In this document: positions 20,184 through 25,791 of the stretch, in pieces
How positions within the stretch are numbered: the stretch's first letter is position 1
How the letters are laid out: each line of letters starts with the position of its first letter
Assembly (NCBI GenBank): GCA_049320885.1
Contig: JBMORA010000009.1
Location: forward strand, 384,001-448,000
DNA length: 64,000 nucleotides
Source: Thermodesulfobacteriota bacterium
Lineage (GTDB): Bacteria; Desulfobacterota; Desulfobacteria; Desulfobacterales; SURF-7
Direction of reading: 5' to 3'
Translations under genes and position numbers: made by a program
Notes under the pieces: model-generated
Database searches by the model: none
What the model was told of the DNA's origin: nothing
The model's input: only the letters and a program-made list of their open reading frames with translations

Positions 20184-23100
20184 ATGTCGAAATCATTCGA
20201 ACAAGTCGCGGCTGAAATCCGCGGGAAAAAAATATTGGTGGCCAACCGCGGCATAACGGCCCGGCGGATCATGCGATCCATCCGGGAAGTATTCCAGGCC
20301 GTTCCGGTGCTGACGGTGACCGATGCGGACAAGACCGCGCCCTTCACCGCCGGGGCCCAGGAGTTGATCCTGCTGGGCGAGAATCCCAGGGCGTATCTGT
20401 CCATCGACCGCATCATCTCCCTGGCCAAAAAACACGGAATTTCGGCCGTGCATCCGGGATGGGGTTTCGCCTCGGAGGATTCCGGGTTCCCGCAGAAATG
20501 CCATGAGGCGGATCTCCTGTTCATCGGACCCACCGCGGAAGCCATGCAGCTTCTGGGGAACAAGGTCAAGGTGCGGGAACTGGCCAGCGGCATCGGTATT
20601 CCGGTGGTGCCGGGTTCCGCAGGCGCTGTGGGCATCCATGAGGCCCGCAAGGTGGCCACGGAAATGGGCCTGCCGGTGATGCTGAAGGCCGAAGGTGGCG
20701 GGGGCGGCAGGGGGATTTACGAGGTCCATGACCTGGAACAGCTGGAGAGCGCTTTTATCAAGGCTTCCACCCTGGCCCAGGCCTCCTTCGGGAATCCGCG
20801 CCTGTTTGTGGAAAAACTGCTCACTTCCGTGCGGCACATCGAAATTCAGGTGATCGCGGACCACCACGGCCATGTGTTCGCCTTTGACGAACGGGACTGC
20901 ACGATCCAGCGCAACCATCAGAAACTGGTGGAGATCACCCCTTCCCCCTGGCCGGGCATGACCCCGGAGCGGCGGGAGCGGTTGAAACGCTATGCCGAAA
21001 AACTGGTGCGGGCAGTGGGATATCACTCCCTGGCGACCGTGGAATTCCTGGTGGACGGCGACGGCCATGAATACCTGATCGAGGTCAATACCCGGCTGCA
21101 GGTGGAGCACGGCATCACGGAATGCCGTTACGGCGTGGATCTGGTGGAGGAACAGATCGCCGTCGCCTTCGGCGCCACCCTTCGTTTCCGTCCCGAAACC
21201 ACCCTGCCGGTCAGCCATGCGATTCAGGTCCGGATCAACTGTGAAGATCCCCGCCAGGGCTTTGCGCCCAATTCGGGTCTGATTACCCGGTATATCTCCC
21301 CGGGCGGACCTGGCGTACGCCTGGATTCCTGTATCTCCGGCGGGTATGCCTTCCCGCCCCACTACGACTCGGCGGCGGCCCTGCTCATCGCCTATGGCAG
21401 GGACTGGGAAAAAACCTTGGCCATCCTGGACCGGTCCCTGAACGAATACATCATCGGCGGTCTGAAGACCACCATCCCGTTCCACCGGCGGATCATCAAC
21501 CATCCCCGCTTCCTGTCCGGGAATTACGATACGCGGTTCATCGAAACAACGCCGGAACTGATGGTCTACCGGGATGTGGAACCGGAGGCCATGCGCCTGA
21601 GCCGGCTCGCGGCCGAGATTTCGGCCAGGGGATACAATTCCTTCGTCCAGCTGGGGGACTATCGCGGCACCCAGGACAAACGCATGCCGCCCTTTGCTCC
21701 GGTACTGCCGCCCCTGGAAGAATCAGAGAGATCCGGAAGCGCCTATCCCAGGGGGGACCGCAAGGCCCTGTTGGATTATATCCGGGATTCCGGTCTGGTG
21801 CATTTCACGGACACCACTCCCCGGGATATCACCCAGTCCAACAGCGGCAACCGTTTCCGGCTGGCCGAGGACAAACTCATCGGGCCCTATCTCGACCGGT
21901 GCGGCTTTTTTTCCATCGAGAACGGCGGCGGCGCGCATTTCCATGTGGCCATGATGGCCAACATGACCTATCCCTTCAACGAAGCCAGAAGTTGGAACCA
22001 GTTCGCCCCGAAAACCCTGAAACAGATTCTGGTGCGTTCCACCAACCTGCTGGGCTACAAACCCCAGCCGCGGAATCTCATGCGGCTGACGGGTGAGCGG
22101 ATTTGCGCCCATCACGACGTGATCCGGTGCTTTGACTTTTTGAACCATGTCGACAACATGCAGCCCCTGGCGGAAGTCGTCATGAATTCGCCCGGGAATG
22201 TGTTCGAACCGGCCGTGTCCCTGTCCTGGGCCGAGGGCTTCGATGTGCCGCACTACATGGGTGTGGTGGACGCCATGGTGGCCATGGCGGCTGATGCCGG
22301 AGGCCTGCCCGAGAAAGCGGCGGTCCGGGAGTTCATCCTCGGTTTGAAGGACATGGCCGGGGTTTGTCCGCCCCGTTTCATGCGGGCCCTGGTGACGGCG
22401 ATCCGGAAGAAATACCCCGACCTGGTGATCCATTATCACCGGCATTTCACCGACGGGCTTTTCGTGCCGGCATGCGGGGCCGCGGCCCAGGCCGGCGCCC
22501 ATATTCTGGACACGGCCATCGGCGCGGCCGTCCGCTGGTACGGTCAGGGGGAGGTGTTGTCCACCGCCGCCTACATCGAGGAAGAACTGGGATTGAAAAC
22601 CGGCGTCGACCGGGAGATGATCCGGGCCTGCAATTTCGTCCTCAAGCAGATCATGCCGTATTATGACCGCTATACCGCCCCCTATTTCCGGGGTATCGAT
22701 CATGACGTGGTCTTCCACGGCATGCCCGGCGGCGCCACGTCCTCGTCCCAGGAAGGCGCCATGAAACAGGGCTATATCAACCTGCTGCCCTATATGTTGC
22801 GCTACCTGGCCGGCACCCGCCGGATCGTCCGCTACCACGATGTAACGCCCGGCTCCCAGATCACCTGGAATACCGCTTTTCTTGCGGTCACCAAGGCCTT
22901 CCAGCGCGGAGGCGAGGAAGAGGTCCGCCATCTCTTGTGGGTCCTGGAATCCGTTGCCGGGGTTCCGGAAGACCGTCTGAACGCGGAATTGAAAAAAGAG
23001 CGGCTGATCCTGTACCGGGAAAGCAATGACGCTTTCCGGGATTTGCTCATGGGCCGTTTCGGCCGGCTGCCCCTGGGATTCCCGCCGGATTGGGTTTATG

Positions 23101-23873
23101 AAAGCGTTTTCGGGGAAAAGTACCGGCAGCTGTTGCCCCAGCGCACCCAGGAGTCGCCGCTCGCATCCCTCGTGGATGTGGACTTCGATGCGGAAAAAGC
23201 CGATCTGGCCCGTCAGATCGAGCGGGAACCCACGGGCGAGGAACTGGTCATGTACCTCAACCATCCGGCCGATGCCCTGAAAACCATCCGGTTCCGCCAG
23301 GAATTCGGCAACCCCAACCGCTTGCCTCTGGATGTCTGGTTCGAGGGACTAACCCCGGACCGGGAGCTTGTTTTCAATGACAGCGACGGCAAACCTCACC
23401 GCATGGTCATCCTGGATATGGCGCCGGCCGATGCGGAAGGGGTGAGTCTGGTGCGCTATGCCCTGGATGACGAGACTTTCGCCTATCCGGTCAAAGTCGC
23501 GGCCGCCACGGGCGCTAAAACCGGCATTCTGGAAATGGCCGACCGGAACAATACGTTCCATGTCGGTTCTCCCAGCACCGGGGATCTGTGGGTCATGTAT
23601 GTCAAGCCTGGCGATCTGGTGAAAAAAGGGGAGGAACTGTTCAACATCACCATCATGAAACAGGAGAAGGCGGTGCCGGCCCCCATGGACGGAATTGTGG
23701 AACGGGTATTAAAAACCGCCGATTTCAAGCACGACAAGAAAATGGTGCCGGTGCGGGAAGGCGAACTGCTGGTGGTGTTGGGGGCGGTACCGAAAAAATG
23801 CGCCGGCTGTCAGACCCCCATCCGGGAGGATAGTTTCCGTTTCTGCCCTTCCTGCGGCGCCTCCGTGGAATAA
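20184..23873 (+). CDS. pyc: pyruvate carboxylase with C-terminal zinc ribbon
   Basis: Biotin carboxylase (ANRG, HPGWGFASE, RDCTIQR, NTRLQVEH), carboxyltransferase (DTTPRD, KDMAG, HxH, MPGG), biotinyl domain IMKQE. Confidence 0.93.
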   Translation: MSKSFEQVAAEIRGKKILVANRGITARRIMRSIREVFQAVPVLTVTDADKTAPFTAGAQELILLGENPRAYLSIDRIISLAKKHGISAVHPGWGFASEDSGFPQKCHEADLLFIGPTAEAMQLLGNKVKVRELASGIGIPVVPGSAGAVGIHEARKVATEMGLPVMLKAEGGGGGRGIYEVHDLEQLESAFIKASTLAQASFGNPRLFVEKLLTSVRHIEIQVIADHHGHVFAFDERDCTIQRNHQKLVEITPSPWPGMTPERRERLKRYAEKLVRAVGYHSLATVEFLVDGDGHEYLIEVNTRLQVEHGITECRYGVDLVEEQIAVAFGATLRFRPETTLPVSHAIQVRINCEDPRQGFAPNSGLITRYISPGGPGVRLDSCISGGYAFPPHYDSAAALLIAYGRDWEKTLAILDRSLNEYIIGGLKTTIPFHRRIINHPRFLSGNYDTRFIETTPELMVYRDVEPEAMRLSRLAAEISARGYNSFVQLGDYRGTQDKRMPPFAPVLPPLEESERSGSAYPRGDRKALLDYIRDSGLVHFTDTTPRDITQSNSGNRFRLAEDKLIGPYLDRCGFFSIENGGGAHFHVAMMANMTYPFNEARSWNQFAPKTLKQILVRSTNLLGYKPQPRNLMRLTGERICAHHDVIRCFDFLNHVDNMQPLAEVVMNSPGNVFEPAVSLSWAEGFDVPHYMGVVDAMVAMAADAGGLPEKAAVREFILGLKDMAGVCPPRFMRALVTAIRKKYPDLVIHYHRHFTDGLFVPACGAAAQAGAHILDTAIGAAVRWYGQGEVLSTAAYIEEELGLKTGVDREMIRACNFVLKQIMPYYDRYTAPYFRGIDHDVVFHGMPGGATSSSQEGAMKQGYINLLPYMLRYLAGTRRIVRYHDVTPGSQITWNTAFLAVTKAFQRGGEEEVRHLLWVLESVAGVPEDRLNAELKKERLILYRESNDAFRDLLMGRFGRLPLGFPPDWVYESVFGEKYRQLLPQRTQESPLASLVDVDFDAEKADLARQIEREPTGEELVMYLNHPADALKTIRFRQEFGNPNRLPLDVWFEGLTPDRELVFNDSDGKPHRMVILDMAPADAEGVSLVRYALDDETFAYPVKVAAATGAKTGILEMADRNNTFHVGSPSTGDLWVMYVKPGDLVKKGEELFNITIMKQEKAVPAPMDGIVERVLKTADFKHDKKMVPVREGELLVVLGAVPKKCAGCQTPIREDSFRFCPSCGASVE

Positions 23874-23884
23874 GTTTTTCAATC

Positions 23885-23990
23885 CCCGCAACCTAAGTTG
23901 CCGTGTGAACCTTGCTTGCCCGTCCGGCAAATCCTTGCCGGACGGGCTTTTGTTTGCAACAGCCGCCCCGACCCGCAACCTGGGTTGCCG
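23885..23990. promoter_or_regulatory. pair of palindromic enhancer (UAS)-like sites
   Basis: CCCGCAACCTAAGTTGCCG (23885-23903) and CCCGCAACCTGGGTTGCCG (23972-23990), 17/19 identical, core GCAAC-N4-GTTGC. Confidence 0.65.
23918..23955 (+). terminator. intrinsic terminator of birA-pyc
   Basis: Perfect 13-bp stem GCCCGTCCGGCAA-atcc-TTGCCGGACGGGC followed by TTTTGTTT. Confidence 0.85.
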
Positions 23991-24067
23991 GGAATCCGGT
24001 TTTCCCTCGACCAGTTTTTTACTAATTAAATCCAAATAAATCAAATTAATAGCCGAATTCCTCCCCC

Positions 24068-24083
24068 TGGCACTCCCCTTGCT
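24068..24083 (+). promoter_or_regulatory. sigma54 (-24/-12) promoter
   Basis: TGGCAC-TCCCC-TTGCT, matches consensus; preceded by an AT-rich tract (24014-24051) where IHF would be expected to bind. Confidence 0.8.
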
Positions 24084-24123
24084 CTACTACCGGCCAACGC
24101 TCACAACAACAGGGGGAATCACC

Positions 24124-25791
24124 ATGGCAACCATCACCTTCACCGACAAACTTCCGACCATCGAAACCATCACCCGGATGCTCATTCAGGAAGCGCTCAA
24201 ACGCGCCGGCGGCGACAAGAGCGCCGCTGCCAAAATGCTGGGCCTTTCGGAAAAAAACCTGGGAAACCAGCTCAAGAAATGGCGCTCCATGGTCGGACAG
24301 GCCATGCTGGTTCTGTGCCTGCTTTTCACGGCCCCCGGAGCCCGGGCCGATGAAACCGGCGGCTTCGTGGACGGACAGGTGGTGGTCCGTTTCCAGGCCG
24401 ATGCCCATCCGGCCGATATCGACGCCCTGATCCGGGATCGCGGCCTGGCGGTCCATGAACAAATCGACGCCATTCAGTATTATGTCCTGATCCTGCCGCC
24501 TGGTGCGAGCGTTATGGAAACGGTGGCCGAGCTGAAGAAAAACCCCCTGGTCAGCGCCTGTGAGCCCAATTACGACCATGAAACCCTGGATTTCCCCAAC
24601 GACGAGCTGTTCCCCCGGCAATGGAGCCTGGACAATCCCGAAACAGGCGGCTCCGGCATGGCCGTCACCAAGGCCTGGGAAGTGGAAGCGGGCAGCAGCG
24701 ACATCATCGTGGCGGTCATCGACATGGGCTTCGACCTGACCCATGAGGACCTCCAGGCCAACCTCTGGCGCAATCCGGGCGAAATCGAGAACAACGGTGT
24801 GGACGACGACCGCAACGGCTATGTGGACGATATCACGGGCTGGGATTTCGTCAACCAGCCGGTGGGCCTCGAGGAACCGGCCAACGATTACCGGGATGAG
24901 GACAACGACCCCACCTTCCGGCTCTCCTCCCACGGCAACCGGGTCCAGGGCATCATCGGCGCCACCACCGGCAACGGCATCGGCATCGCCGGCATCGCCG
25001 GCAAGAGCCGGGTGATGCTCATCCGCGCCGGGTACATGAACACCGAAGGCAACGCGGTGCTGAGCTCCTCCCATGTGGCCAAGGGCGTGATCTATGCCGC
25101 GGACAACGGCGCCCGGGTGATCAACATCAGTTCGGGCAGCGATCGCTACAGCAACAGCTACAAGGCGGCCCTGGAATACGCCGCGAGCAAGGGGGTCCTG
25201 ATCGTCTGCAGCGCCGGCAACGAAGGCTCGGGCTCCCTGGTGTACCCGGCGGCCTACGATATCCCCGGCCTGATCTCCGTGGGCGCCACGGACAAGAATG
25301 ACGGCAAATCCTGGTTCTCCAACTTCGGCGACTGGGTGGACGTGTCCGCCCCGGGTCAGAACATCGTCACCACCCTTCTGGACAACGGCTACGGCGAAAC
25401 CCAGGGCACCTCCTTCTCCGCGCCCATGGTGGCGGCCACTGCGGCCTTGATCTTCGCCCGCTACCCCTTGTGGACCCCGGCCCGGGTGAAGGACCAGATC
25501 ATGAATACCGTGGATGTGGCGGCCGGCCTTTCCGGCGCTAACCTGACCTCCGGCCGGATCAACGCCTATCGGGCCTTGACCGCCGATCCCGCCTCCTTCG
25601 GGGAAGAGACGGAAACCACCCGCACCCAGGCCTCGACGGCACAGGCTCCTGCGGCGGAGGAAGGCGGCTCGGGCGGCGGCGGTTGCTTCATCGCCTCCAC
25701 CACCACGGAATATCCTGCAACGGGCATGCTGCCGATGGGTCTGCTCCTCTTGATCGCCGCGGTCTTCCGGCCGGTGCGGAAAAAAGGATAG
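24124..25791 (+). CDS. S8 subtilase with N-terminal Fis-type HTH, internal signal peptide, prodomain and C-terminal CFI-box/GlyGly-type sorting anchor
   Basis: LIQEALKRAGGDKSAAAKMLGLS HTH; KKWR-hydrophobic-ARA signal; VAVIDMG, HGNRVQG, SAGN, GTSFSAP; GGGGCFIA-TM-RKK tail. Confidence 0.88.
   Translation: MATITFTDKLPTIETITRMLIQEALKRAGGDKSAAAKMLGLSEKNLGNQLKKWRSMVGQAMLVLCLLFTAPGARADETGGFVDGQVVVRFQADAHPADIDALIRDRGLAVHEQIDAIQYYVLILPPGASVMETVAELKKNPLVSACEPNYDHETLDFPNDELFPRQWSLDNPETGGSGMAVTKAWEVEAGSSDIIVAVIDMGFDLTHEDLQANLWRNPGEIENNGVDDDRNGYVDDITGWDFVNQPVGLEEPANDYRDEDNDPTFRLSSHGNRVQGIIGATTGNGIGIAGIAGKSRVMLIRAGYMNTEGNAVLSSSHVAKGVIYAADNGARVINISSGSDRYSNSYKAALEYAASKGVLIVCSAGNEGSGSLVYPAAYDIPGLISVGATDKNDGKSWFSNFGDWVDVSAPGQNIVTTLLDNGYGETQGTSFSAPMVAATAALIFARYPLWTPARVKDQIMNTVDVAAGLSGANLTSGRINAYRALTADPASFGEETETTRTQASTAQAPAAEEGGSGGGGCFIASTTTEYPATGMLPMGLLLLIAAVFRPVRKKG

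Follow-up and report, generated by a model that had tools for sequence, protein, structure and literature searches.

What is a DNA-binding domain doing in front of the signal peptide of a secreted protease? This question is raised by one gene in a 64,000-nucleotide stretch of Thermodesulfobacteriota DNA (the window). An initial annotation of the window described a Fis-type helix-turn-helix (HTH) that runs in frame into a secreted, anchored subtilase, and proposed that each exported protease leaves behind an HTH that competes with the true activator at the upstream enhancer.

Results

Architecture of the fused protein

The gene at 24124-25791 (+) is a single open reading frame of 555 amino acids in which a Fis-type HTH, a signal-peptide-like segment, a prodomain, an S8 protease and a Cys-transmembrane-basic tail follow one another (Table 1). 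Its neighbours are a pyruvate carboxylase gene and an oppositely oriented gene of 767 amino acids. Pfam recognised HTH_8 on residues 13-53 (38.2 bits, cut-off 22, E = 1.2e-9), a fervidolysin-like prodomain (PF22148) on residues 73-149 and Peptidase_S8 (PF00082) on residues 192-463, the latter two also above cut-off, and nothing further in the 555-residue protein. The HTH peptide first singled out corresponds to residues 4-52, and residues 13-53 conform to the Fis-type HTH_8 family in both profile match and three-helix pattern. With the catalytic triad (D200/H270/S430) and the oxyanion residue (N366) all in place, the protease belongs to the S8A subtilases; it shares prodomain, triad and fold with fervidolysin/thermitase-type enzymes, which, unlike the HTH fusion, carry ordinary signal peptides. 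An AlphaFold model of the whole protein (mean pLDDT 59) returned subtilases as all of its top Foldseek matches, none of them described with an N-terminal HTH. The HTH part of the model consists of helices 13-27, 32-39 and 43-68 (pLDDT ~75-82 over residues 11-50), and the last of these, helix D, is continuous with the hydrophobic segment.

The stretch joining HTH to prodomain continues the frame of both and contains KKWR, then a hydrophobic core that starts at residue 60, then ARA↓D, where signal peptidase I is predicted to cut in the course of Sec export. The pattern of basic n-region, short hydrophobic core and A-x-A recurs in most of 23 homologues and is indistinct in P0005-P0007. The tail, in which GGGGCFIA precedes a transmembrane segment and basic residues, scored 14.7 bits against the MYXO-CTERM model (TIGR03382) when taken alone, below the cut-off of 15.85. 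Thus, the order of parts described in the initial annotation is borne out.

Table 1. Features of the protease locus (window coordinates)
Feature	Position	Strand	Remarks
Distal enhancer palindrome, GCAAC-CTAA-GTTGC	23888..23901	.	-180 from TGGCAC of the promoter
Intrinsic-terminator-like hairpin	23918..23947	+	ends upstream pyruvate carboxylase gene (20184-23873); between both enhancer sites
Proximal enhancer palindrome, GCAAC-CTGG-GTTGC	23975..23988	.	-93; position conserved
IHF-like site	24039..24051	+	87% A+T stretch; pattern match with 1 mismatch
Predicted sigma54 -24/-12 promoter, TGGCAC-N5-TTGCT	24068..24083	+	conserved in relatives
Ribosome-binding site before Met1	24109..24118	+	purine-rich
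Degenerate Fis-type HTH, residues 1-53	24124..24282	+	scaffold retained, DNA-contact residues gone; predicted decoy
Internal Sec signal-peptide-like segment, residues 54-75	24283..24348	+	ARA↓D predicted; n-region supplied by basic end of helix D; pattern only
Fervidolysin-like prodomain	24349..24588	+	PF22148
S8 subtilase domain	24589..25584	+	D200/H270/S430, oxyanion N366
GGGGCFIA, hydrophobic segment, basic tail, stop; sorting-signal-like anchor	25672..25791	+	below MYXO-CTERM cut-off

The fusion is conserved and begins at Met1

In a homologue search that scored 8000 candidates and listed the best 120, the 40 closest family proteins among the matches listed (query included) formed one group, 23 of them with an intact HTH. 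The other 17 comprised two with a decayed HTH, three with the prodomain and no HTH, 11 with neither and one fragment; the HTH-less family members have ordinary signal peptides. The named relatives are Desulfobacterales metagenome-assembled genomes (MAGs), and the source genome (G000) encodes a second copy that is 95% identical. Because of this second copy and the 23 HTH bearers, the fusion is neither a chance product nor a singleton or assembly artefact, and the concern that it might be unique to one assembly is removed.

The fusion was found in 7 of 18 genomes of the family. A phylum-wide sample of 301 genomes searched at E 1e-18 yielded no candidate decoy outside G000, and a pattern scan of metagenomes returned three stretches, namely one true locus (L102) and two chance matches. 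In a tree built from the S8 domain only (44 rows; P0040 and P0042 left out), HTH loss in P0029 (97/98) and decay in P0026/27 (98/90) are both nested among HTH bearers, and the HTH is thus dispensable in places; the base of the tree is unresolved, so that gain and loss cannot be distinguished for P0025/P0028 and the prodomain-less group. A sister subtilase group (P0030-P0039; L003, L004, L089-L091) has neither HTH nor prodomain and retains a signal peptide and a sigma54-like promoter. Both G000 and a second genome (G111) hold two fusion copies at matching places, one after pyruvate carboxylase and one after a TonB/ExbD cluster. These copies (24124-24534 compared with L087, L088 and L152) are 93% and 99% alike within genomes and 73-75% between them, so concerted evolution is likely.

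A ribosome-binding site precedes Met1 in the loci examined. Internal initiation at Met56 or Met61 was considered and rejected: neither codon has a Shine-Dalgarno-like string, three of eight loci lack any ATG, GTG or TTG at codons 41-66, and the internal starts of the remaining loci have no such string either. The annotated contrast between Met1, with its ribosome-binding site, and Met56, without one, therefore stands. The gene's own promoter and ribosome-binding site, located behind a terminator, rule out that the HTH is the remnant of a broken upstream activator gene. Pooled dN/dS was 0.26 for the HTH, 0.23 for the prodomain, 0.53 for the signal segment, 0.12 for S8 and 0.58 for the tail, estimated from seven within-genus pairs that are non-independent and include one partner that is probably a pseudogene. 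The HTH is thus under purifying selection similar to that on the prodomain. Together, these sequence comparisons support a fusion translated from Met1 as a single polypeptide that is conserved and under selection.

The HTH keeps its scaffold and loses its DNA face

The closest matches of the fused HTH are the C-terminal domains of one clade of enhancer-binding activators, as expected if it was copied from such a protein. We compared the 23 fused HTHs with 31 full-length activators. At 17 scaffold positions, the fused copies retain 16.8 on average and the activators 16.6; at eight DNA-contact positions, the corresponding values are 1.8 and 7.7. Residues common to both sets are F6, L10, P11, T12, I13, L20, E23, A24, R27, G30, A36, L39, G40, I41, S42 and L46, and the positions nearly fixed in activators and free to vary in fusions are 31-33, 43-45, 48 and 49.

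In Fis numbering, assigned through the NCBIfam Fis match (offset +42), the eight DNA-face positions are Asn73, Gln74, Thr75, Arg85, Thr87, Lys90 and two neighbours, with contact roles as given in two Fis studies (PMC3711457, PMC4784862). The product of 24124-25791 has D31, K32, S33, E43, N45 and N48 at the six named positions; it retains one of the eight, and the fused copies retain 0-3 of 8, lacking the conserved Fis contact equivalents by which an HTH_8 DNA binder is recognised. In five pairs, pN/pS was 0.08 for scaffold, 0.52 for DNA-face and 0.43 for other columns, the scaffold and DNA-face columns having been picked after conservation was seen. Judged from these substitutions, the fold of the fused HTH is maintained and its DNA reading is not.

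Promoter and enhancer

A sigma54 promoter and a GCAAC-N4-GTTGC enhancer lie upstream of every fused locus with DNA sequence, and the sigma54 start with upstream enhancer predicted at the outset is supported as a sequence pattern at this locus, which has two of the palindromes. The proximal enhancer lies at -93/-94 in all eight fused loci compared and also in G403; second sites in relatives are at -163/-164 or -180/-182. The IHF-like site, one mismatch away from the IHF consensus, lies in A+T-rich DNA between enhancer and promoter. Of 11 exact palindromes in G000, four are at the two protease promoters, and these two are the only ones among 215 sigma54-like sites in that genome with exact palindrome copies upstream. 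G000 encodes both RpoN and RseP.

The combined enhancer-plus-promoter pattern occurs at 15 places in 11 of 401 genomes, as against one place for the reversed control. The genes behind it are seven fusions, three free HTHs, three small secreted proteins and two chemotaxis-type genes. The small secreted protein, of ~120-140 aa, has the same enhancer-promoter in G111, G310 and G158 (L177:2508-2870, L160, L161); it has no NCBIfam match, and tblastn found none in G000.

A candidate activator

In G000, the closest HTH to the fused one is the C-terminus of a 371-aa AAA+-HTH protein (C35:27210-28361, hereafter C35) that has no N-terminal domain in Pfam. Since its orthologues of 329-408 aa have an open frame, the missing sensor domain is not a truncation. 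In G231 and L102, the gene immediately following that of the protease encodes a C35-type activator. This sensor-less activator likely reads GCAAC-N4-GTTGC, as judged from the residue at the Fis Arg85 position. Activators of the clade have Gln there at 14 loci adjoining ACAAC..GTTGT sites, an Arg-bearing regulator of the clade in G043 faces GCAAC..GTTGC, and of two activators of the clade in G000 only C35 has Arg. An apparent recognition code thus pairs Gln with ACAAC-N4-GTTGT and Arg with GCAAC-N4-GTTGC (loci L114, L116, L119, L121, L132, L134, L138, L142, L196, L197, L201, L204, L205, L212, L218; counts from related, non-independent genomes). This code fits the contact of Fis Arg85 with guanine (PMC3711457, PMC4784862). 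Sequence identity is uninformative about the donor type of the fused HTH (0.47 to the Arg type and 0.47 to the Gln type).

Of 18 family genomes, again related and non-independent, 10 have both the activator and the degenerate HTH and five have neither; the other three have one of the two (activator only in two, HTH only in one). The two activator-only genomes are 66% and 89% complete; the HTH-only genome, G401, is a MAG in which the activator gene has been deleted and a frameshift interrupts the protease. A counter-example is G305, which is 97% complete and has an Arg-type sensor-less activator without a decoy.

According to one paper, activators that lack a sensor are likely to work with partner proteins or to form part of a cascade (PMC4641369). 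In most loci, the first activator is followed by another sigma54 activator that is likewise sensor-less (L082:6558-7778 (-); C35 region of G000). Its promoter reads TGGCA..TTGAT with CAGGAC/GTCCTG repeats, and its HTH is of a different type from that of the first. Conservation of the pair in the family suggests an activator cascade.

Free and otherwise fused forms of the HTH

Four genomes of genus g3, in which the subtilase has no HTH, encode a free HTH protein of ~56 aa with its own ribosome-binding site and stop and with the enhancer upstream. These g3 proteins retain the equivalents of Arg85, Thr87 and Lys/Arg90 (pN/pS 0.11) and have a Fis-like recognition helix; for free mini-proteins overall, pN/pS was 0.28. 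Because their DNA face is conserved, the g3 mini-proteins may still bind DNA and compete for it, and the mechanism may differ between members of the family. Three genomes of genus g160, which belongs to another family, have the HTH in frame before a secreted gene with one or two stops between, and the enhancer-promoter was seen at two of these three loci. The secreted gene is repeat-rich, and in G326 a single TGA separates it from the HTH (L217:2072-3688, L216, L214). This arrangement suggests a split fusion or a fusion in the making.

A profile search of 1.84 billion representatives, of whose 2167 matches the best 150 were listed, found, in a Nitrospinota MAG, an exported protein unrelated to the subtilase that begins with the HTH and a segment resembling a signal peptide (P0186; MFQ5559978.1). 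None of 119 relatives of P0186 among the matches listed has the HTH, and P0186 has no NCBIfam match. The family to which it belongs (P0276-P0394) has at least 126 exported members with a length of ~230 aa, and no match in Pfam was listed for it. Another protein, P0127 (258 aa), has four tandem copies of this HTH type and no AAA+ domain. A small HTH-only frame behind the Arg-type response regulator of G043 (L218:3959-4201), which lacks the G-N-Q turn, is possibly an independent decoy. Small frames in G244, G160, G158, G262:C87 and G403:C39 were rejected as decoys, being broken or cut activators, and a free mini-protein used as query in the ESM Atlas retrieved generic HTH_8 clusters only. As these arrangements read, the HTH module is portable: it is fused to two unrelated exported proteins or stands free.

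A decoy reading and its alternatives

We favour, at a probability of about one half, a reading in which the fused HTH is a protein-contact decoy of its own gene's predicted activator and, tethered to the membrane, exerts negative feedback. C35 would bind GCAAC-N4-GTTGC and, having no regulatory domain, would be active unless checked in trans. The hydrophobic segment of the protease precursor is predicted to insert N-in/C-out and to be cut by signal peptidase at ARA↓D, and the proenzyme would mature outside the cell, held by its C-terminal tail. One HTH per protease molecule, made from the very promoter that the activator is predicted to control, would then stay on the cytoplasmic side, either membrane-bound or freed by RseP, the protease that clears signal-peptide remnants in E. 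coli. The conserved F-x3-LPT arm and helix B of this leftover HTH may form the contact with the HTH of the activator. The product would be a dimer with one blind half or an activator held at the membrane, and the brake would scale with protease synthesis and remnant turnover.

Complex prediction scored the HTH with the activator at 0.44 against 0.00 for the best control, with contacts at least 94% alike between runs and a partner pLDDT of at least 75. Of 157 solved pairs, 116 passed the same mark, as did 2 of 215 mismatched pairs; at 0.60 or under, it covers only 18 of these solved pairs and both passing mismatches. The prediction lends weak support to pairing and may reflect memory of Fis/NtrC dimers. 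The strongest objection to the decoy reading is that helix A is absent from the AlphaFold model of the fused HTH, since activator DNA-binding domains without helix A do not dimerise off DNA, according to one preprint (bioRxiv 10.1101/2023.05.30.542961). The invariant F-x3-LPT arm may replace helix A; alternatively, the decoy may operate on DNA, next to a subunit of the activator. A sharper version, which we hold only tentatively, makes the signal peptide itself the anti-activator: DNA-blind HTH remnants at the membrane would trap a constitutive sigma54 activator until they are cleared.

Negative feedback, proposed at the outset in a secretion-coupled form, is still the likeliest purpose. The module does not depend on coupling to secretion, as the same promoter is found in two other genera in front of HTH mini-proteins that stand alone; the fusion would be one way of delivering it.

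The HTH might instead lengthen the signal peptide into a leader that has no role in transcription and helps in export or maturation, for example through dimerisation or by setting the pace of the precursor. Such a leader would suit the three settings in which the HTH stands before an exported protein (the S8 fusion, P0186 and the stop-separated g160 genes). It is an unlikely explanation, given free mini-proteins with their own ribosome-binding site and stop in four g3 genomes and the ordinary signal peptides of HTH-less members, and it leaves the likeness of the leader to the promoter's own activator unexplained.

The original proposal, that the released HTH occupies the enhancer in competition with the activator, fared less well than the architecture from which it was drawn. 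The HTH does belong to a clade predicted to read GCAAC-N4-GTTGC, the residue found most often at the Arg85 position is Lys (35%), and the g3 mini-proteins keep their DNA face under constraint. However, the DNA-contact positions are largely lost from fused copies, the protein studied here having Glu in place of Arg85 and Asp in place of Asn73, and helix D is predicted to run into the membrane segment. In Fis itself, N73A is reported to bind DNA 140-fold worse and K90A to lose non-specific binding (PMC3711457, PMC4784862). Competition of the fused HTH for enhancer DNA is therefore quite unlikely.

A conserved protein-contact surface would suit an effect of either sign, so the HTH might stimulate or stabilise the activator, or bind a different regulator, for which the second sensor-less activator, next to the first in most loci, is a candidate. 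Both ideas are distinctly improbable: an activator without a sensor has more need of a brake than of a trigger, as is established for PspF and HrpR/S, and the HTH of the second activator is of a different type. Moreover, TraR is inhibited, not helped, by heterodimers with the half-functional TrlR (PMC13043044). That the HTH is a tolerated relic of partial gene duplication, retained just to stay in frame, would accord with its loss and decay in some lineages and with a DNA face that drifts like other surface positions, but is very improbable, since the scaffold hardly varies between genera whose synonymous sites are close to saturation and the free mini-proteins are under selection as well.

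Discussion

The proposed decoy resembles several known systems in part. Sensor-less AAA+-HTH activators of sigma54 checked in trans by anti-activators are known in the PspF-PspA and HrpR/S-HrpV pairs. C35 is likewise an AAA+-HTH activator without a regulatory domain, scoring 204 bits against the PspF model (TIGR02974), below its cut-off of 443.55; PspA and HrpV, unlike the fused HTH, are unrelated to the activator and bind its AAA+ domain. The Id proteins of eukaryotes retain a dimerisation scaffold and have lost DNA contacts. The same split between scaffold and contacts is seen in the fused HTH, whereas Id proteins have the HLH fold, are soluble and are not part of a signal peptide.

TrlR of Agrobacterium is a truncated TraR paralogue that inhibits TraR through inactive heterodimers (PMC13043044). 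Like TrlR, the fused HTH is a paralogous, partial copy of an activator. In contrast, TrlR is LuxR-type, has the ligand domain without the DNA-binding domain and is not fused to a secreted enzyme; the fusion copies only the DNA-binding domain of a sigma54 activator, with the reading face lost, and carries it on a secreted protease. RsiV, the anti-sigmaV factor of Bacillus and Clostridioides, combines a cytoplasmic inhibitor domain, a signal-peptidase site and an extracellular domain and is degraded by regulated intramembrane proteolysis (PMC6066255). The fusion similarly places a cytoplasmic domain ahead of a predicted signal-peptidase site and an exported part. RsiV differs in its ECF sigma factor target, its lysozyme-receptor outer domain and a cleavage gated by amphipathic helices; the fused protein has no RsiV domain in Pfam, no adjacent ECF gene and no sequence relation that we could see. 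By analogy, the decoy would act like TrlR, be delivered like RsiV and target a PspF-like activator, while being a member of none of these families.

A literature search, mainly of open-access papers, found neither an HTH-signal peptide-subtilase fusion nor an HTH-only decoy of an enhancer-binding protein; the sole match for both domains places HTH and S8 in different genes. The HTH-protease fusion thus appears to be a real, conserved architecture that was previously undescribed.

Sensor-less sigma54 activators need a brake, which has been described for a minority of them. If the decoy reading is true, a degenerate copy of the activator's own HTH is a new way of supplying one, the remnant of a signal peptide takes part directly in transcription, and certain small HTH_8 genes without annotation find an explanation. 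The circuit in G000 is minimal, with one activator and two promoter copies, and could thus be rebuilt in an E. coli reporter. Should the anti-activator version also prove true, transcription would be set by flux through signal peptidase and RseP, and the portable module would establish HTH decoys of enhancer-binding proteins as a class.
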